Source: an uncultured Chloroflexia bacterium
GTDB lineage: Bacteria; Chloroflexota; UBA6077; JACCZL01
Assembly (NCBI GenBank): GCA_963765765.1
Contig: CAVXYC010000004.1
Coordinates: 1-34,293 of the forward strand
Direction: 5' to 3'
DNA: 34,293 nucleotides
The first letter of the stretch is position 1. Every line of letters begins with the position of its first letter. Both the position numbers and the translations under genes were made by a program. Under the pieces are notes generated by a model. The model did no database searches. It worked only from the letters and a program-made list of their open reading frames with translations, and was not told the DNA's origin. Of the stretch, positions 5,250-32,952 are shown one piece after another.

Positions 5250-7418
5250 ATGCTCATGGAGGACCCGGAAGGACAAGCATTGGACCTACCCGTAATCCTG
5301 ATCGTCGCCCATGACCCGTTGGTGCGGCGCGCCATGGAGCGAGATCTCGAACGGCAGTTTGCTAGCGACTATCAAGTGCGCTCAGTTGATTCCGGTCGCG
5401 CTGGTCTCGATGTCATCCGCGAATGCGCCTTGCACGGGCAACCGGTGGCCATGCTGCTCGCCGACCAGCCTATGCCAGAGATGAGCGGCGTCGCATTTCT
5501 GGCCGAGGCGGCGCGATTAGCTCCGAGAGCCAAGCGAGTTCTGCTCGCGGCCTATGACGATACCCAGGCCGCGATCAGCGCGATCAATCAGGTGCGTCTG
5601 GACTACTATCTCCCGCGACCAACGGGCTCTCCCGACCAGAGCCATTACACGGCCCTCAGTGATCTCCTGGATGACTGGCACACAACCGCGCCAAGGCTGG
5701 GCTCCGGAATTCGTGTCGTCGGCCATCGCTGGTCCGCCCGTTCCCATGAGATCAAAGATTATCTGGCGCGAAACCTCGTTCCTTACGAATGGATGGACGT
5801 GGAGGCACAGGAGGACGCGCAGCATCTCCTGCGCTCGCCGGCGCCAACCCGGCCCAGCTTCCACTGGTGCTCTTTCCCGATGGCGCGACGCTGGTCCAGC
5901 CTGACGTTTCGAAACTCGCGGAACGCCTGGGCCTTCGCACGCACGCCCAACGTCGCTTCTACGATCTCGTCATCGTCGGTGGCGGACCGGCCGGATTGGC
6001 GGCGGCAGTCTACGGTGCCTCCGAAGGGCTCCACACGCTGCTGATTGAGCGCGAGGCACCTGGCGGGCAGGCGGGGATGAGCGCCCGAATCGAGAACTAC
6101 CTCGGGTTCCCCTCAGGTTTAAGCGGCGGCGAGCTGACCCGACGCGCCGTTGCGCAAGCCAGTCGCTTCGGCGCTGAGATCCTCACTCCATGCGAGGTGG
6201 TTAGCGTCGAGCTACACGGTGACTATCGGGTGATCCACCTGTCCTCGGGCGAAGAGATCAACTGCCAGGCGCTGCTCATCGCCACAGGCATCTCCTATCG
6301 AAAGCTCGATGTACCGGGCGCCGATCGATTGTCCGGCGCGGGCGTGTATTACGGCACGGCCGTACCAGAGGCTCTGGAATCGCAGGGGCGGGACGTCTTC
6401 ATCGTTGGCGGCGGCAACTCGGCCGGCCAGGCGGCTATGTATCTCTCCCAATATGCCCGCTCGGTGACGGTGCTCGTGCGCGGCGAGTCCCTGGCCAGCA
6501 GCATGTCGCAGTATCTCATTGCCCAGATCGAGTCCACGGACCGCGTCACTGTTCGTGCGCGAACGAGCGTCACCGAGGTGCTGGGCGAGAGCCACATTGA
6601 GTCGCTACGTCTCCGATACTCCAATCCCGCCATGGAGGAGACCGTTCCGGCGGACGCACTCTTCATCTTTACAGGCGCCACGCCTCGAACCGATTGGGTG
6701 GCGGGGACGATTGAGCGCGACGAGGATGGCTTCATTCTTTCCGGAGCGGACGTGATGCGCGACGGCAACCCGCCGCTCGGCTGGCCGCTGGAGCGCGATC
6801 CCTATTGGCTGGAGACGAAGCGTCGCCGGCGTCTTCGTCGCCGGTGATGTGCGTCATGGATCGGTCAAGCGGATCGCCTCAGCCACCGGCGAAGGCGCCA
6901 TGGCCGTACAGCTCATTCACGGCCACCTGGCCGCTCCATCGCCGCGGCGAGTGGGGTGGGCTGCTGCTCCTGAGGAGCACATCGCTCTCCTGCGCTCATC
7001 GTCCATCTTCGCGAACCTGGCCGATCGCGATCTCGAGCTTCTGGCAGAGCTAGCCAATCCCGTGGACGTACCGTGTGACCAGCTCATTATTGAAGAAGGT
7101 CGGGAAGGCGACACACTTTACCTGGTGTTGGATGGGCAGCTCGAAGTCTTCACCAATCGCGACGGTCGCGATGTGCGGCTAGCGCTCCTTACCCGTGGAC
7201 AAATCGTCGGGGAGATGGCAGTGCTGCAGCAATCGCCGCGCATGGCCTCTGTCCGAGCCCTCTGTGACACTCGCCTGCTGGTGATCAGCCAGGCCGCGTT
7301 TCTGCGAATGCTGATGAAGAATGCGAGCGCATTGCGTGAAGTCTTGCGCACCGTCACGTCTCGCGTACGCGAGACGGAGAACACGTTAACTCAGCAAGCA
7401 CCATTCCCTCGTGGATAA
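5250..7418 (+). CDS. Receiver domain + thioredoxin-reductase-like FAD oxidoreductase + C-terminal cNMP-binding domain (frameshifts near 5832 and 6817)
   Basis: REC LLADQPMPEMSG; FAD motif IVGGGPAGLAAA; NAD(P)H motif IVGGGNSAGQAA; ETSVAGVFVAGDVRHGSVKR after correction; cNMP domain EEGREGDTLY...GEMAVLQQSPRMASVRA in frame with the TrxB end. Confidence 0.85.
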
Positions 7419-12130: not shown

Positions 12131-12262
12131 AAGTGCAGCCTCTAAGTGGGTGTGCTGCGCGTGCCAATTCGTACTCGGTGCACGTGGCCATCTCCGAAGG
12201 GAATTCTTACGATGACTGCAATCTCGGGACTGGAATCCAGGTCTTCAGGAAGGGCGAAAGCC

Positions 12263-13070
12263 ATGCGCGTCAATGTTGGCTGCGAGCTGAGGTTTAGCTC
12301 GCCCGCGCCGGTGCCGCTCGTAGCTCAAGTGCTTCCGCGCACTGACGATGCACACGAGATTCTCCGCGAAGAGCGCTCGGCTGAACCGATCGATCAATCG
12401 CACGAATATCAGGATGCCTTCGGGAATCGCTGCTGGCGCATCCTGGCGCCAGCCGGTGACTTCTCGTTTCGCTACGATGCCGACGTGATGATCACCGGCC
12501 AGCCGGATCGGCGTGGTACCTGAGGCGATGCAGGTTCCAGTGGAGGACCTGCCGGACTCTCTCCTCGCCTGGACGCTCCCCAGCCGTTACATCCTCTCTG
12601 ATGTGCTGGGCAGCACGGTCTGGGATCTCTTTGGCTCAACGCCCCCCGGATGGGGCCGCGTGCAGGCGATTTGCGATTGGATCCATCAGCACATCCAGTT
12701 CCGAGCCGCCAGCACCACCCCCGCTACCACAAGCCTGGATGTGTATCATCAGCGCTACGGCGTTTGCCGAGATTTCGCCCACCTGGGTGTCACCATGTGC
12801 CGCGCTCTCAATATTCCCGCGCGCTACGTCTTTGGCTACCTTCCAGACATCGGCATTGAGCCGCCGGATGTACCCATGGACTTCCATTCCTGGTTCGAGG
12901 CTTATCTGGGCGGGCAGTGGTACACGTTTGATGCGCGACACAATGAGCCGCGCATTGGACGTATTCCGATCGGCCGCGGACGCGATGCGCTCGATGTCGC
13001 CATCGTCACCCAGTATGGCGCCAGCACGCTTGCGGGTATCAGCGTCTGGTCGGATGCACTCGACGCTTAG
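12263..13070 (+). CDS. Transglutaminase-like family protein (frameshift near 12510)
   Basis: YQDAFGNRCWR N-domain; triad motifs GVCRDFAHL, DFHSWFEAY, WYTFDA; IGRGRDALDV. Confidence 0.88.
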
Positions 13071-13089
13071 CCAGGGAATACAGGGCTCG

Positions 13090-13994
13090 GTCGTTGACAG
13101 CCTTGAAACTCCCGCCACACTGCTTGACCATGCCATCGTGGATTGGGACCGAGTACGGCGCACCAGTTACCTGGTGGACCAGGTGCTGCGCTACGAATAT
13201 CCCGGGCCCGTGGAAAATCTGCATCAGCGTCTAGTGGTTTTCCCCACGATCGATACGGACAACAGCGGCTTCTGAATCGCCACCTACAAGTGAGCGGTCC
13301 TCAACCGAGGCTTCAAGAAGAGCTCGATCAGTTCGGAAACCGTGTTTGCCATCTGTTGGTGCCGCGGACCGAGCGGGTTATCGAATTTGAGGTCCGTTTT
13401 CTGGTGGAGCTCAATCGCGCTGCACGTCCACTTTCGCCGGCAAACATGAAGGACCCGGAGTACCTGGAGCCGACGGCTCTCACGATGCCTGACGGACACC
13501 TGAAAGAAGTCGCGACCCAGCTCGCCGGTTCTGGGCATCGCCCTGGACCTCCCGAACCGGATCAATGATTGGGTCAGGCAAACCATCGAGTACAAGAAGG
13601 ATGTGACCGGCGTGAAGACCACGGCGGCGGAGGCACTTTCGCTTCGCGCGGTGTGTGCCAGGACTACTCCCACATCATGATCAGCATCTGTCGGCTCCTT
13701 GAGATCCCGGCCCGCTACATATCCGGTCATCTCCTGGGCGAGGGCGCGACGCATGCCTGGGTAGAGGTGCTCGCGCCTGATCCCGTTCATCGTGATCGAT
13801 TCAGCATCCAGGCCTTCGATCCGACTAACGGTCGCCGGTGTCGCGCCGATGCGATAACGGTGGCAGTGGGACGCGACTATTCGGACGTATCGCCCACCTC
13901 CGGAACGTTCGCGGCGCCCTACGGCGGGTTCCTCTCCAGCCGCAAAGCGGCCGGCATCATTGAGCTAGAGTACTTCGAGCCGGAAGCTGCCTAG
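13090..13994 (+). CDS. Second transglutaminase-like protein (about 3 frameshifts; start uncertain)
   Basis: LRYEYPGPV, DQFGNRV, EYKKDVTGVKTTAAEAL, GVCQDYSH, ATHAWVEV, FDPTN, VAVGRDYSDVSP across frames. Confidence 0.8.
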
Positions 13995-14109
13995 TTCTCC
14001 GCGGAACAGTCACTGGTGGCGCTCCTTCCTACTGCCTCTGAGTCAGGCGGCACGGTCAGCCCCAGTCCAACTACCATTCCCGGTATCAACTCGGAGCGGG
14101 AGTTCTGCT

Positions 14110-14670
14110 ATGCCGCGTATCCGTCCCATTACTGTTGACGAAGCCGAACCGCAAGTTCGAGCCGCGATGGAGCGCAACCTTGAAGCGTTTGGACGCGTCC
14201 TCCCGAGCACCGAGGTCTACGGGCACGCTCCCAGAGTGCAAGAAGGCGCTCGCGCCCTTGACGCGGGAATCACCGCCGCCGGCCGAATCTCACCCGAGCT
14301 TCGATCATTGATGAATGTACGCGTGGCCGCCACGGTCGGCTGCCCATTTTGAATGGATAGTAATGCTGCCGGGAGCAGCAGAAACGGTGCGTCCGACGAG
14401 AAGATCGCCGCCGTCTACGAATACGAGAAAAGCGATCTCTTTACGCCGGCCGAGCGCGTGGCGCTGGAGCTGGCCGACGCCATGACGGAGACGCCACCAA
14501 ACGTGACCGATGAGCTCTTCGCCCGCCTCCAGGAGCACTACAACGAAGCCGAGCTTGTGGAGCTCGCCGCCATCGTCGCGCAGGAGAACTTCCGCTCTCG
14601 ATTCAACACGACATTCAGGGTTGAAAGCGCGGGCATGTATTGTCCCGTTCCGCCAGCGTCGAGCGGCTAA
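14110..14670 (+). CDS. Carboxymuconolactone decarboxylase / AhpD-like protein, candidate selenoprotein (Sec at codon 81, CxxU)
   Basis: ORFs 14110-14352 and 14353-14670 are in one frame, separated only by TGA 14350-14352 in VAATVG-C-P-F-U-MDSN; joined 186-aa protein has FTPAERVALELADAMT...VTDELFARLQEHYNEAELVEL...ENFRSRFN. Confidence 0.85.
14364..14380 (+). promoter_or_regulatory. Candidate bacterial SECIS hairpin
   Basis: 6-bp stem UGCUGC / GCAGCA with loop CGGGA; 17 nt between UGA and loop; G at loop position 2. Confidence 0.65.
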
Positions 14671-15029
14671 TTGCGTGTGGTGAGATTGAACATGGACATG
14701 AGGTCCATAATTCAGTCTCACCACGAACCTATCTGCTGCCTCGGGGCTAGAATTGGAATCCCAGACAGGTTCCAGTGACCAAGCTAGCCGATGAACGCGA
14801 TGCTTACTCAGTGCTGTGACTGTCGCCATGATTCGAGTTAGCAGACTTCCGCGGCGATCTCGCCAGCTCAGTGCGCAAACCGCGCACAGCACCCATAAGA
14901 ACGACGCGCGCCAGCGGCGAGCAACAGCACGTTCACCACAGGCGGCACGTCATTCGGCAGGTCGGAGAAGCCGGACGAACCAGATAGCGAATCCGATGAT
15001 GAACATAAGATTGGGCGTGCTCAGCAGCT

Positions 15030-15759
15030 TCAGGAGCCAGCCCTAGAAGCGCTTCCTCCCAGGTATATGTCCTGCACGCGATCATTTCGCAGGAGCTCCG
15101 CGCCTGTCCCGGACATGACCACGGACCCTGTCTCCATGACGTACACATGATCAGCCATCGCCAGGGCTGCTCGAGCGTTCTGCTCGACCAGCAGGATAGC
15201 CAGTTCACTGCCCTTGAGCTGCACGATCGTCTCGAAGATCATCGTCACAACCATCGGCGCAAGCCCAAGTGATGGCTCATCCAGGAGCAGGACTCGAGGT
15301 CGCGCCATTAAGGCGCGTCCGATGGCCAGCATCTGTTGCTCGCCGCCACTGAGCGTGCCGGCTTAGCTGAGCGGCTCGCTCTCGCAGTCTGGGAAAGAGC
15401 GTCATAACTCGATCCAAGTCGGCCGCTCGATCGCCCGCGCGTTGTGACGAGGCAATCGCGCCCAGATCCAGGTTGTCGCGCACCGTGAGTCCGCCAAAGA
15501 CCTGACGCCCCTCTGGCACGTGCGCAACACCCAGCCGAACGATCTCATGCACGGAACGACGAGTTAGATCATCATCATCCAAAGCGATCGTTCCGGAGCT
15601 GGCCCGCAGGACGCCCGAAATCGTTCGAAGAAGCGTGGTCTTGCCAGCGCCATTGGCACCAATGAGCGCCACGATCTGCCCAACATCTACGCTGATGGAC
15701 ACGTCGCGCAACACCGTCAGCGGCCCGTAACCCGAGTGAAGCTGGCTAACTTGCAGCAA
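15030..15759 (-). CDS. livF: Branched-chain amino acid-type ABC transporter ATP-binding subunit (frameshift near 15360)
   Basis: [28 protein letters not shown] after correction, [19 protein letters not shown]. Confidence 0.9.
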
Positions 15760-17586
15760 CCGTGACTTCCTCGCCCAGATAAGCGCGGATGACCTCCGGA
15801 TGCTGACGGATTGCTTCAGGCGAGTCATCCGCCACGAGCTGACCGTAGTTGAGCACGGCGATCTCATCAGCGACGCGCATCACCAGGCGCATATCGTGCT
15901 CCACCAGCACCACAGTCAGCCCCTGCTCGCGCAGCCAGAGCAATAGATCGCCTAGTCGGTCTTTTCCGACTCATTCAGTCCAGCTGCCGGCTCGTCCAGC
16001 ATGACGATGGACGGTTCCAGCGACAGCGCGCGAGCGATCTCCAAGAGCCGACGCTCGCCAAACGGAAGAGTACTCGCCAACTGATCGGCACGCTGTCTAA
16101 GCCCCACCAGGTCTAGAAGCGCCATGGCCGACTCGTGAGCCGTCCGCTCCTCGACCGTACTCGAGGTGCCTTCACAAGATTGGCCAGCAACGATGAGGTA
16201 AAGAGGGCGTCGTGGCCGGTCAGCACGTTGTCCAACACGCTCAGCGACGTGAACAGCCTTGGCGTCTGATAAGTACGCACCAGCCCCAGCCGCGCCACCG
16301 CGTCCGACGCCAGGCCGATGACCTCGCGTCCATTCAGCAGGACCGAGCCTGAGTCCGCCGGCATGACACCCGAAAGGAGATTGAAGAGCGTGGTCTTGCC
16401 CGCGCCGTTGGGTCCGATCACAGCCTTGAGCCGCCCCGCGGCTACATCGAAAGATACGTCGCCTACCGCTTGGAGCCCCCCGAATCGTTTAGAGATGCCT
16501 CTGATGCTTAAAAGCGGCATCGTGCCCTCCGTCATCGAGCGCGGTACCCAGCTAAGTCGAGTCAGCGCTGATGTGCCAGCCCGCAGTGGCGAAGTAACAG
16601 CGGAGGTGCGCCCACGGGCCAGGAAATCCATGATGAACCCCGCAATGCCGCGCGGCATGAAGATCAGGATCAAGATGAAGATCAGGCCCTGGATGGCCAC
16701 GCGCCAGTCCTGGAAGATTCCCATGAGCTCCGGAAGAAAGCGCAGGACGACGGCGCCCACGATCGGCCCCCAGAGTGTTTCCACACCGCCCAGAAAGAGC
16801 ATGAGCACCATATCGAGCATCACCGGGATGTCGAAATTCGCGGGGGTGGGCACGCGCAGGTAGAGGCCGTAGATGCTCCCGGCCAGAGAGGCGTAGGACG
16901 CAGATAACATGAAGAGCTGCACCTTGCGTCGTGGGACCGGAATTCCGAGCGTATTCGCGGCCTGTTCGTCGGTGGCAATCGCACGAATGGACCGGCCGTA
17001 GCGTGATTCGATGTAGTTGCGACCCACAATCAATCCTGCCAACAGCATGAGTACGGCCAGCCAGTAATACTGAAGGTCAGATGAGATAGGAACGCCCGGC
17101 AATAGTGGGTCGGGGAATGCCTTGAAGTCCGGACCACCCGCCGGTCACCTCGGGAAATCCCGCGATGACGTGGACCACTATGACGGCGAACCCCAGCGTT
17201 GCCACGGCGAAGTAGTACTCCTTGAGTCGAAGAGTGGCCAGGCCAATAATCAGTGCCAGAAGGAGACTCACTCCAAGAGCAATGATGATCCCCAGCAGTA
17301 AGGGAACCTGGAGGCGAACCGCGAGAATGCCCATCACGTACGTGCCCACGGCGAAGAAGCCAGTGTGTCCAAAGGTGGGCAGGCCACCGTAGCCCATGAT
17401 CAAATCGAGGCTGACTGCCACGATGCTGAAAAAGGCCACCGTGACGAAGACGTTCATTACGTATGTCTGCCCGAAGAGCAGCGCTGGAATGGAAGCGATG
17501 ACGATGAACGTGACCATCCAGTGCCAGCCGTCGAAAAGAAGCGCGCGAACGTCGATGTCGCGAGCTTGCCAGGGCAAGGCCGACAT
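15746..17586 (-). CDS. Fused LivM permease / LivG ATP-binding subunit (about 3 frameshifts)
   Basis: SLDLIMGYGG, LRLKEYYFAVATLGF, GRSIRAIATDE, then in frame [41 protein letters not shown]. Confidence 0.85.
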
Positions 17587-24126: not shown

Positions 24127-24519
24127 TCATCCGTGCCAGTCGGGGTGATCGTCCCATTGGCTTATGACGCTGTTGGCGGCCTCGAGCGCGTGGTTCGTCT
24201 TGGGAAAGCCGATGTACGGCGCGCACTGAACGATCGTCTCGATGATCTCTTCGCGGGTTGCACCGCGGTTGAGCGCGCCGCGCGTGTGAATGGCCACCTC
24301 GCCGGGCAGGTCCTGCGCCGCGGTGGCAGCAATCACGATCAGCTCGCGCAGCTTCAGGTCCAGGCCAGGGCGAGCCCAGATGGTGCCGAAACAGTATTCC
24401 AGGATACTTTCAGCATGCCCGGGATCTATCTCATTGAGAGCGCGCCAGCGCTCTTCGCCGTTCTCACCAAAGGCACTCCGTCGGATCTCCTGGCCACGTT
24501 GCCGTCGATCGTCACTCAT
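24127..24519 (-). CDS. Carboxymuconolactone decarboxylase family protein (PcaC-like, no CxxC)
   Basis: GGAGG RBS; FGTIWARPGLDLKLRELI, HTRGALNRGATREEIIETI..APYIGFP. Confidence 0.88.
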   Translation of the reverse strand: MSDDRRQRGQEIRRSAFGENGEERWRALNEIDPGHAESILEYCFGTIWARPGLDLKLRELIVIAATAAQDLPGEVAIHTRGALNRGATREEIIETIVQCAPYIGFPKTNHALEAANSVISQWDDHPDWHG

Positions 24520-24545
24520 CGCGAGCCTCCTCTCAACTTGGGCGG

Positions 24546-25407
24546 TTATCGGAACAGCGGATGCCCGATGCCTGGCGTCTTCACACGTAGGCTGTAGATG
24601 GACGTACGAGCAGTGAAGTAGATCGTTCTCAGATCTGGCCCGCCAAAGACCAGATTCGCGGGGACCTCCGGCGTGCGGATAATACCGAGCCTTCTCGCCA
24701 GCGGGATTGAATACCCACGTGCCACCCGCGCCGGTGCAAAGGATATTGCCAGCAACATCTACTTTCATACCGTCCGGCACGCCGTCCGTCTCGTCCGACG
24801 ACATATCGGCAAAGATCCGCCGCCGTACTACCGTCCGATCATCTGCGAGCTCGAAGACGTGGATGTATTGACTGAATCGCGTGTTGGAGACGTAAAGCAG
24901 CTTCTCATCCGGAGAAAACGCTAGTCCGTTGGGGTACTCGCAGTTGGCCACCAGCGATACATCGCCATCCGGAGCGATCCGATACACGCCGGAATAGAGC
25001 AGCTCCTTTTGATCCAGCGGTACGCGTAAACCGGGATCAGTGAAATAGAGGCTGCCATCCGAGGCGCAGATAACGTCATTCGGGCGACTGAGTCGCCCGC
25101 CTTCAAATCGGTCGACCAGTGTCTCAGCCTCCGAGCCGGGAGTCCAGCGAGCAATTCGTCGACTCCCGCCTTCGCAAACGATGATTCGACCCTGGAGATC
25201 CAGCGTCGTGCCGTTGCCGTCCCCGGTGTTCTCTCGAATCAGCTCCGGCGAGCCGCCTGGAACGAGCTTGTAGTACTTCCCGACCCAGATATCTGAGAAA
25301 GTCAGATATCCGTCCCTATGCCAGATAGGCCCCTCGACGAACTCAAAGCCCGTCGCGACCCGCTCAGGCTCGGTCGTTTCCAGAATCGCGCTGAGGTCTT
25401 CGTTCAT
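24546..25407 (-). CDS. SMP-30/gluconolactonase family protein (frameshift near 24690)
   Basis: GFEFVEGPIW, RPNDV, LYFTDP, PNGLAFSPDEK, PDGMKVDVAGN; true C-terminus PANLVFGGPDLRTIYFTA in the adjacent frame. Confidence 0.9.
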
Positions 25408-25544: not shown

Positions 25545-26631
25545 CTATCCATTGGGCGTGATCACCGCCACAATGGCTTCCAGCGTCTCACTGGCACGGA
25601 ATGCCTCGTTCGCCTGGTCCAGCCCGTATTTGTGGGACACCATGCGCTCGACCGGGTACGGCGTCATGGTCTGCATGGCTTCGAGGCAACGGATGAATGA
25701 CTCCGGGTCGGCTCCCGACACGCCAGTTACCCGCAGCCCCTTCTGCACGATATGAGCTGGATTGATGGGCACCGCGCCAAAGTCCGTGGCTGAGCCAACC
25801 AACAGATAACGGCCACCGGAGCGGACCATCTCCAGCCCCTCCTGAACGACGGACTTGGTCCCGGCGCACTCGATGACGACGTCCGCGCCGCGGCCGTTGG
25901 TGATATCCCGAATGCGCTGCACACGCGCTTCCGGCGTGGGAAAATCCTGCAGATCCAGCGTTTCCGTAGCGCCCAGCTCAAGCGCCATCTCGAGCCGATG
26001 TGACGGCGCACCAATCATGATGACTCGGCCGCGCCCGCGATCTTCGCCTGCACCAGGCCTGCCATGCCCATGGGTCCGGAGCCTTGAACGACGACGGTGT
26101 CTGCCAGACCAATGCCGCCCATGCGCTGAATGCCGCGCCAGAGGGTGGGGTTGCCGGTCACGCTGATAAGTGCCCGCTCCGACGTCACGTCGTCCGGAAT
26201 TTTCAGAATCCATCGACGTGTCGGCTCTAGGTAGACGTACTGGCTGAAGCCTCCGGTAATGTGCGGCGGCTCGGTGAATGGCCGCATGCCGTACATCATG
26301 CGCTCTTCGCAGTTTTCACCCATGGCGCAGCTTCGGCACTTACCGCACGGTGCCGAGCGGAAGAGAACGCGATCACCCTCCCGTAGCGGTTGACCGAGTA
26401 CGTCCTTATCCAGTCCCTGTCCCGCCATCGCGAGCGTAGCCACGTTCTCGTGGCCGAAGATCATAGGGTGCGGGGTGGTATCGATGTGCAGGTTGTGTAC
26501 GTCCGTCCCGCAGACCGCGGCCATGGACATCTTCACGATGGCACCGCCCGGCGGCGGATCGGAACCGGGAACTCCTGCACTTCCAGCGGCTTACCAGCCC
26601 CCACAAAGACCGCGGCCTTCGATGTCGTCAC
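25545..26631 (-). CDS. Zinc-dependent alcohol dehydrogenase (frameshifts near 26555 and 26030)
   Basis: GGAGG RBS and GTG; KAAVFVGAGKPL, CGTDVH, FGHE, CGKCRSC...NC, GSGPMG, GRGADVVIECAG. Confidence 0.88.
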
Positions 26632-31900: not shown

Positions 31901-32952
31901 CTACAGCCCGAAGAATCTCCTGGGGTTCGCCTCCAGGATCTGCTCCTGATCAGCCTCCGACAAACCAGAGCGGCGTAGGTCCTCGATAGCCGACGGCCAG
32001 AGGCCGTTGGGGTCGCCGTGATAGAAGTCGCTGCCCAGCATGAATTGATGGTCGGGCACCAGCCGCACCATGTCGGCGAGGTACGGCTCTTTGGTGTGCA
32101 CCGTGATGTAGAAGCGGTCGATGTACTCGCTGGGCATCCGCTCGAGGTGCGTGATCAGTCGCGAGGCCTGGCCGCGCTCCAGATGGTCCTGGTAGTAAAT
32201 GTCCAGCCGGTTCATGAGGTACGGCACCCAGCCACGCCGGCCTCGAACATGCCGAATTTCAGCGTGGGAAAGCGATCCAGAGCGCCGCTGAAAATCAGGT
32301 GCGCCATGGTCAGCATGTAGGTGAACGAAAAGCCCAGCGCCGAGCCCAGGAAACCGTACTCGGCACCGAATCGATCGGCGCCAACCAGCGCGGTGTTCAG
32401 CGGCTGAGCATCGGAAGTACGCGCCGCTCCGTGCGCCAGCACGGGCACGTCTAGCTCGGCCACCTTCGCCCAGAACGGGTCCAGCTCACGGCTGCCCAGG
32501 TGGAGATCGCCGACCGCACCGGTGACTTTAACCGACCGCAAGCCGAGCGTATTGACGGCCCGCTCCAGCTCCTTGATCGCGCCGTCGATGTCGGCCAGAT
32601 AGACCCAGGCCACACCGATGTAGCGATCGTGCCCCTTGATCGCCGCGGCCGTGGCGTCGTTGTAGCCGCGCGCCAGTGAGTTGCCGATCTCCGGGTCGTC
32701 CTCGTAGATCAGGGGTCGGTTCTCCGGAATGAGCACCTGCCGATCGAATCCGTGGCGGTCCATCACCGCCGTGCGCTTGCTCAGGTCGTAGCCGTCCTCC
32801 GGGATGCTGATCAGCGGTGCGCCCTGCCGCAGCACGTTGATTCGTGTGCCGTCGCGCTGATATTGAATCCAGTCTCGCGCTGCCGGGCTGTCCACGTGGT
32901 CTAGCCACTCCAGCGGCAGATAATGCGTGTCGGCATCGATGTACAGGGTCAT
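31901..32952 (-). CDS. Amidohydrolase family protein (Amidohydro_2, ACMSD-like); frameshift near 32230
   Basis: IDADTHY, ELDPFWAKVAELDVPVLAH, LIFSGALDRFPTLKF..EAG, MLGSDFYH, ILEANPRRFFGL. Confidence 0.88.

Follow-up and report, generated by a model that had tools for sequence, protein, structure and literature searches.

A CMD/AhpD-like selenoprotein gene with a conserved in-frame UGA and a covarying hairpin in an uncultured Chloroflexia bacterium

We analyzed a stretch of 34,293 nucleotides from an uncultured Chloroflexia bacterium (hereafter the window) and confirmed that positions 14110..14670 form one intact gene for a UGA-containing small redox enzyme, a member of a selenocysteine-using family. 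It is highly probable that this single gene encodes a 186-residue CMD/AhpD-like selenoprotein of the COG2128 / YnjA-YciW-like branch with UGA81 decoded as selenocysteine (Sec), for which a selenol/thiol oxidoreductase function is proposed. The features of the gene are collected in Table 1.

Table 1. Positions of the selenoprotein gene and its associated features in the window
Feature	Position	Strand	Remarks
Shine-Dalgarno-like GGAG / GGGAG	14093..14102	+	7 nt between its end and ATG 14110
Selenoprotein gene, complete	14110..14670	+	186 codons and TAA stop; CMD/AhpD-like fold; UGA81 very probably read as Sec
Redox motif C78-P-F-U81	14341..14352	+	TGC CCA TTT TGA
Sec codon UGA	14350..14352	+	TGA 80, other 0 among the best 80 of 493 relatives; Cys in distant homologues
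Bacterial SECIS hairpin	14364..14380	+	6-bp stem, loop CGGGA; encodes part of N85-A-A-G-S-S90
Cys178, Y-C-P-V-P tail	14641..14643	+	Clade-specific

Reading frame and split annotation

Two open reading frames, 14110..14352 (80 aa) and 14353..14670 (105 aa), were found in the same frame with the TGA at 14350-14352 as their sole separator, just as the first-pass annotation had described in joining the two fragments into one frame with a single in-frame UGA. The read-through product comprises 186 residues, with the core V-G-C78-P-F-U81-M-D-S-N and the C-terminal end M-Y-C178-P-V-P-P-A-S-S-G. Apart from the TGA, the frame is unbroken between ATG and TAA, the product aligns with its relatives from end to end, and no frameshift was seen in the selenoprotein gene. 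The Pfam CMD profile (PF02627) matched residues 41-123, a span that crosses the TGA, over profile positions 1-83 of 84 (E 5e-15). It was noted that the read-through protein scored 55.7 bits against the gathering cut-off of 23, whereas the halves scored separately reached 21.9 and 18.3 bits, so that the cut-off was passed by the read-through protein only and by neither half. The AlphaFold2 model, built from a 92-sequence alignment, is all-helical with nine helices (mean pLDDT 94.7, pTM 0.89). This fold and the PF02627 match across the TGA agree with each other and with the 186-aa CMD/AhpD-like protein that had been claimed, and the PF02627 score together with the all-helical AhpD-like fold places the product in the CMD/AhpD-like superfamily.

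The claim that annotation pipelines split the gene in two was likewise borne out by the public records. A word-indexed protein search returned 166 relatives, and 115 of the 120 that were listed are fragments of 102-124 aa, approximately half of the query, named either 'hypothetical protein' or as a truncated 'carboxymuconolactone decarboxylase family protein'. Among the 14 fragments that were read, nine begin right after the Sec column, three begin two residues later, two begin eight residues later, and none begins before it (0 of 14). An exhaustive search also recovered 80-aa N-terminal pieces (P0125, P0210, and P0214) that end in GCPF. Fragments that abut the Sec column in this manner are the signature of gene callers halting at a conserved UGA. 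One record, P0002, is identical to the C-terminal fragment of the window (14353-14670) except for its tail, which reads ..PPASVDAEPDA in the record and ..PPASSG in the window; the record stems either from a strain that is nearly identical or from a different version of this region.

Other candidate selenoprotein genes in the window were sought by listing the in-frame stops flanked on both sides by 60 or more open codons. The TGA at 13566-13568 in a transglutaminase-like gene, with open stretches of 146 and 141 codons, was rejected as a second Sec codon and attributed to a frameshift artefact because the reading that looks conserved (..NDWVRQTIEYKKDVTGVKTTAAEALSLR..) is in a different frame. 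Past the stop codon of the selenoprotein gene by 7 nt, we observed an inverted repeat (14677-14724) with 14-nt arms, GTGGTGAGATTGAA and TTCAGTCTCACCAC, that are 93% complementary and 20 nt apart. A T-run does not follow this repeat, and it was not called by the terminator scan; it may represent a repeat element or else a T-independent terminator.

Conservation of the Sec codon and the downstream hairpin

We assessed the UGA codon across relatives through a scan of one genome per species, which confirmed 493 relatives; the best 80 of these were retained for analysis (42-74% identity). These 80 were derived mostly from Chloroflexota MAGs, with some from Acidobacteriota, Methylomirabilota, Myxococcota, Binatota, and Pseudomonadota. 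All 80 of the best 80 of 493 possess TGA at the Sec column, and a TAA or TAG at this codon, which would have spoken against Sec, was found in 0 of 80, as was any sense codon. The surrounding contexts in the same set were CPF*MD (32), CPF*VD (20), CPF*ID (15), and others (13), and the median identity to the window was 40% for the N-terminal half and 56% for the C-terminal half. The first-pass annotation had placed the UGA at the second Cys of a CxxC motif with Cys in homologues, and the Cys/UGA pairing check on the read-through protein upheld this: Cys occupies the Sec column in more distant full-length relatives, including P0080, P0093, P0099, P0126, P0127, and others. The first four of these carry GCPFC-I/V-D, and the full-length Cys relatives show GCPF-C, GCSF-C, or GCEF-C in comparison with GCPF-U in the window. 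Across the 92-sequence alignment, C78 is invariant and the Sec/Cys column is always C or U. The gene thus displays what characterizes a bacterial selenoprotein gene, namely a Sec/Cys pair and a UGA kept in orthologues with coding conserved on both sides. Two full-length database relatives carry other residues at the Sec column, W (CPFW) in P0048 and R (CPFR) in P0123, which reflect either one-base changes of TGA (to TGG and CGA) or translation by the depositor under another code.

In a quick tree (SH-aLRT), the window was grouped with four Chloroflexota MAGs (L001-L004) at a support of 100, and the clade as a whole derives mainly from Chloroflexota. Three of 11 Cys forms were nested among Sec forms, a placement that suggests that Sec/Cys switches may have occurred in both directions or more than once. 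It was also noted that two loci from MAGs with distant labels, L068 589-1176 (labelled Myxococcaceae) and L069 5364-5951 (labelled Dehalococcoidia), are identical in their proteins and in the 51-nt SECIS region, which suggests mis-binning or very recent transfer.

The hairpin downstream of the UGA, UGCUGC/CGGGA/GCAGCA, comprises six pairs and a 5-nt loop with a folding energy of -7.9 kcal/mol. A 6-bp stem with a CGGGA loop had been described 17 nt downstream of the UGA; the stem and loop were as described, but the 17 nt separate the UGA from the apical loop, and the stem begins at 11 nt. The G that had been noted early in the loop is found at loop position 2 and is followed by another G. The bSECIS model given in the Fig. 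2 legend of PMC13188914 specifies an apical loop of 3-9 nt, a stem of 4-16 bp, a G in the first two loop positions, a UGA-to-loop distance of 16-37 nt, and an MFE of -7.5 kcal/mol or lower. The window hairpin lies within all four published constraints (5-nt loop, 6 bp, 17 nt, and -7.9 kcal/mol) and has its G at loop position 2. Judged in the window sequence alone, the hairpin is weak evidence. We found that 17 of 200 shuffles of the 17-mer folded as well, that the 76-nt context folded no better than its shuffles (z 0.07), and that 79 of the 1079 TGA triplets (7.3%) in the window, which is 61% G+C, are followed by a bSECIS-compliant hairpin in a simplified scan that considered uninterrupted stems only. 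No Rfam family matched the whole window at the gathering threshold, and a permissive scan of 14300-14450 (E up to 10) returned only chance snoRNA matches (E > 2).

The support from the hairpin becomes decisive because of the comparative data, in which the TGA in 80 of 80 relatives is accompanied by covariation of the stem. For this examination, the 51 nt from the TGA were aligned for the window and the 80 loci (81 sequences) in a gap-free alignment. RNAalifold predicted the same six-pair stem from these sequences, and a seventh pair is present in sequences with a GGN triloop. With the seven-pair structure, 88.0% of cells form standard pairs, compared to a shuffle mean of 77.0% and a range of 17.7-73.6% for slid partners. 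The proposed covariation was recovered as compensatory double changes in six of the seven pairs (shuffle mean 4.4) and as a score of 0.375 (shuffle mean 0.162), which none of 500 shuffles reached and which compares to at most 0.228 for slid partners; the shuffle control ignores the kinship of the sequences, a concern that is partly answered by the slid-partner control and by the Cys-homologue control. At columns 15-31, the outermost pair alternates between U-A (32 sequences) and C-G (30-31). Since the 5' base of this pair falls on the synonymous third (wobble) position of the Asn85 codon, selection on the protein does not explain the correlation. Other switches keep the stem and change the peptide, such as GCUGCC..GGCAGC (N-A-A-G-G-S), GCUAGC..GCUAGC (N-A-S-G-A-S), and ACUGCC..AGCAGU (N-T-A-G-S-S). 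The Cys-homologue control used eight Cys homologues picked for taxonomic spread among the 25 listed of 181 plasmid records; these form only 2-4 of the seven pairs at the hairpin columns, compared to 5-7 of seven in 78 of the 80 Sec loci. The hairpin at 14364-14380 is conserved, covarying, and absent in the eight Cys homologues.

We weighed three other explanations of the TGA against these observations. According to the first, the TGA arose by mutation or misreading of a Cys or Trp codon and has left a dead or truncated gene. Several nearby genes do look frameshifted, which makes sequence quality or gene decay a concern in this region: the transglutaminase-like ORFs at 12146-13994, the LivF/LivG/LivM genes of the Liv ABC transporter at 15030-17586 with LivM fused in frame to an ATPase part, and the zinc alcohol dehydrogenase (25545-26536) and amidohydrolase (31901-32952), each recorded as two overlapping ORFs. 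These frameshifts reflect either an indel-prone assembly or a decaying stretch. However, the defects elsewhere in the window are indels and not substitutions, the selenoprotein frame is undamaged from ATG to TAA and aligns with its relatives over its full length, and conservation is higher in the half that follows the TGA. Because this codon is TGA in all 80 species (best 80 of 493), which come from many phyla, neither a nonsense mutation nor a base-call error explains it, and we regard this explanation as very unlikely.

A comparably low probability is given to the proposal of two small genes linked by UGA-AUG stop-start coupling, whose 80-aa and 105-aa proteins would assemble a split CMD domain. 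It draws on the ATG directly after the TGA in the window, on Met (34 of 80) or Val (21 of 80) as the residue after the TGA in the best 80 of 493 relatives, and on the public gene callers that list both pieces separately. Yet the next codon encodes Ile, Ser, Ala, Thr, or Leu in 25 of the same 80, and the Ile cases are ATT, ATA, or ATC, which are not usual starts. No purine-rich Shine-Dalgarno-like site comparable to the one ahead of ATG 14110 was found before ATG 14353, where the bases upstream are ggctgcccatttTGA. Two separate genes would also cut through the CxxC motif and the active-site helix 79-91, and would leave the covarying hairpin unexplained. Reassignment of TGA to a standard amino acid, Trp or Gly (codes 4, 25), is exceedingly improbable and was excluded because TGA is the normal stop of 11 of the 26 other, Pfam-supported ORFs in the window; the W and R of P0048 and P0123 would fit it, but the relatives belong to many standard-code phyla and the Sec column otherwise holds Cys rather than Trp or Gly. 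Decoding of UGA81 as Sec within a single gene is the reading followed below.

Proposed chemistry and genomic context

In the AlphaFold2 model, the CxxU motif lies at the N-terminus of helix 79-91. Recruitment of SelB by a hairpin 3' of the UGA is the established bacterial mechanism, and because of this we infer Sec insertion in the source organism: the hairpin at 14364-14380 would recruit SelB with Sec-tRNA(Sec), and UGA81 would be translated as selenocysteine instead of a stop. The product most likely follows a selenol/thiol oxidoreductase cycle, with a peroxide or an oxidised protein thiol as the most likely oxidant; the attacking residue, the substrate, and the reductant are those that we infer as follows. 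The Sec81 selenolate would attack an oxidised substrate, which may be either a peroxide or a partner protein that carries a sulfenic acid or disulfide, and Cys78 would then resolve the intermediate through a selenenylsulfide. A thiol reductant, for example thioredoxin, may reopen the selenenylsulfide and so recycle the enzyme. A Sec at the second position of the motif would fit the chemistry of M. tuberculosis AhpD, where the nucleophilic attack is made by the second Cys.

The C-terminal tail was examined in connection with the suggestion that the Cys of its YCPVP motif might act in resolution. This did not hold as a family feature: among the best 80 of 493 relatives, a [YF]C[PVAMT] motif is present in 29, another tail Cys in 28, and no tail Cys in 23. 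With the motif in 29 of 80 and no tail Cys in 23 of 80, Cys178 is not a general resolving residue. The tail is without secondary structure in the model, with a pLDDT of 88 for residues 171-180 and 53 for residues 181-186.

We then considered the genes surrounding the selenoprotein gene. In the window, its neighbours are the transglutaminase-like genes upstream and the Liv-type ABC transporter downstream on the opposite strand. To compare neighbours across 81 loci, we clustered the ORFs that had 90 or more codons and lay no farther than 6 kb from the TGA, and the transglutaminase-like and Liv genes were not conserved beside the relatives. Setting aside the gene's own halves and an antisense shadow, the largest neighbour cluster was a PEP-mutase-family gene found in 13 of 81 loci, and all others occurred in at most nine loci. 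In L003 (8297-9976) and in 12 other loci, this PEP-mutase/isocitrate-lyase-family gene is immediately upstream and has the same orientation; it is not in the window. Since no neighbour is conserved, no partner can be proposed from context. At 5789-7418 (+), approximately 7 kb upstream of the selenoprotein gene, the window holds a thioredoxin-reductase-like pyridine nucleotide-disulphide oxidoreductase followed by a cNMP-binding protein; it is conceivable that this oxidoreductase belongs to the reductant system of the selenoprotein, with which it is neither adjacent nor conserved. A second CMD domain was also encountered at 24127-25407 (-), where it is fused to an SMP-30/gluconolactonase (SGL) domain (CMD Pfam E 7.9e-23). 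A pattern search found no CxxC in this ORF, which makes it probably a non-redox CMD protein.

The genes for Sec synthesis and insertion were sought in the same sequences. No tRNA was found in the 34-kb window, no SelA, SelB, or SelD domain was found among the 48 ORFs scanned there, and no tRNA-Sec was found in the flanks of the 58 of 80 relatives' loci that were scanned (22 shorter loci were left out). The Sec competence of the source organism is thus assumed, and the gene itself is a probable mark of a selenium user. A 2026 database reports Dehalococcoidia genomes with 46-49 selenoproteins and includes an AhpD-like family page (PMC13326102), and these genome counts place the selenoprotein trait in the phylum to which the nearest relatives belong.

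Comparison with known systems

Among solved structures, profile searches gave E-values of 2e-25 to 4e-25 against CMD/AhpD entries, and 37 PDB fold matches were obtained at E <= 0.001, those listed all being CMD/AhpD-family entries such as Bmp8 (6ohi), 2prr ('AhpD core, peroxidase-related'; TMq 0.86), PA0269 (2ijc), and Atu0492 (2gmy). By sequence, the solved structure that matches best is that of the thiol-dependent debrominase Bmp8 (PDB 6ohi, 6ohj; E 3e-13, 25% identity), with a profile match of 2.9e-25 over positions 4-171 and a fold TM of 0.80. Bmp8 ranked first in the single-sequence search and on Foldseek E-values, and was narrowly second in the profile search. The CxxC of Bmp8 aligns with the CPFU of the window, and both the fold and an equivalent of the C82 of this debrominase, Cys78, are present in the window protein. 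The clade could accordingly be viewed as a selenol-dependent reductive dehalogenase related to Bmp8 and not as a peroxide-defence factor, in which case Sec would play the same role as in the iodothyronine deiodinases. We consider this improbable. In the C82A chain of the Bmp8 substrate complex, the mutated Cys is the first of the motif and aligns with Cys78; the dehalogenase reading is weakened because Sec81 aligns with the second motif Cys of Bmp8 instead of the mutated Cys82, and because AhpD-type structures match about equally well. No bmp-like neighbours of halogenated-pyrrole biosynthesis were found in the window or among the conserved neighbour clusters. The selenol/thiol oxidoreductase cycle set out above remains the preferred reading.

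The P. aeruginosa PA0269 / AhpD structures (2ijc, 2o4d, 7xw1) and Agrobacterium Atu0492 (2gmy) share the core fold of the window model (TMt 0.88-0.93, rmsd 1.1-1.5 A) with the CxxC aligned. These proteins are shorter (approximately 145 aa), are without the N-terminal 40 residues, and carry Cys in place of Sec. They possess a His four residues past the second Cys (C-x-x-C-V-D/N-M-H), the residue that is catalytic in M. tuberculosis-type AhpD, whereas the window has Asn85 where 2gmy, 2ijc, and 7xw1 have this His. Proton relay chemistry of the AhpD type is therefore not simply transferable to the window protein, and it does not group with M. tuberculosis-type AhpD by this residue. The M. tuberculosis AhpD structures 1knc and 1gu9 themselves match the window weakly (E 0.5-0.7, TM 0.45-0.52). 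Among named homologues from model organisms, E. coli YnjA (CMD family) is the closest, with 32.9% identity over residues 27-185. YnjA has CEFC at the CPFU column of the window, and thus Cys in place of Sec, forms 3 of the 7 hairpin pairs, and is encoded in the context ydjZ-ynjA-ynjB.

With regard to curated families, relatives among the 120 listed of 166 carry the JGI label 'alkylhydroperoxidase family enzyme', which we take to be the COG2128 name. TIGR01926 ('peroxidase-related enzyme') aligned residues 2-167 with profile positions 1-169 of 178 and scored 42.2 bits, below its cut-off of 81.8. The best family match was NCBIfam NF053654, 'GroundWater_YciW, YciW-related (seleno)protein' (E 1.8e-46), which is curated by NCBI as a (seleno)protein and matches end to end, with residues 1-177 on profile positions 1-177 of 179. 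The score against this equivalog was 158.1 bits compared to a cut-off of 310, and all 92 aligned relatives matched it, the best member at E 1.6e-66. These sub-cut-off scores suggest that the window protein and its relatives form sister clades that fall outside the equivalog. The window protein stays below the cut-off of every curated NCBIfam model, as, to judge by the scores, do its relatives; the clade is probably mis-annotated across many MAGs of Chloroflexota, Methylomirabilota, Acidobacteriota, and Pseudomonadota. The set of 81 sequences with a covarying and very compact SECIS (6-7 bp, 3-5 nt loop) is a possible training case for SECIS models. The practical value of the finding lies in annotation and SECIS modelling and the surprise is low; no new question is opened by it, because AhpD-like CxxU proteins have ranked since 2005-2008 with the most abundant prokaryotic selenoprotein families known.

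The statement in the first-pass annotation that AhpD/CMD-like selenoproteins had already been reported from metagenomes agrees with the 2005 and 2008 surveys in what they describe of these families. AhpD-like (COG2128) CxxU selenoproteins were described as new in the Sargasso Sea with 27 sequences in 2005 (PMC1088965). The GOS survey of 2008 gave 299 sequences for AhpD-like 1, with AhpD-like placed fourth among 51 families, and 70 sequences for AhpD-like 2 (Pfam02627) (PMC2398784), and the family table of a 2026 review includes an 'AhpD-like protein, TIGR01926, CxxU' (PMC13188914). Likened by their published descriptions, this family (PMC1088965, PMC2398784) and the window gene share a CMD/AhpD-like fold, a CxxC motif whose second position is Sec, and a SECIS hairpin that follows immediately downstream. 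They differ in their source environments, as the sets described in those surveys derive from marine plankton, whereas the window clade comes mainly from Chloroflexota in soil and groundwater MAGs. The window gene is a new member, from a clade that current curated models leave uncaptured, of a selenoprotein family first described two decades ago.
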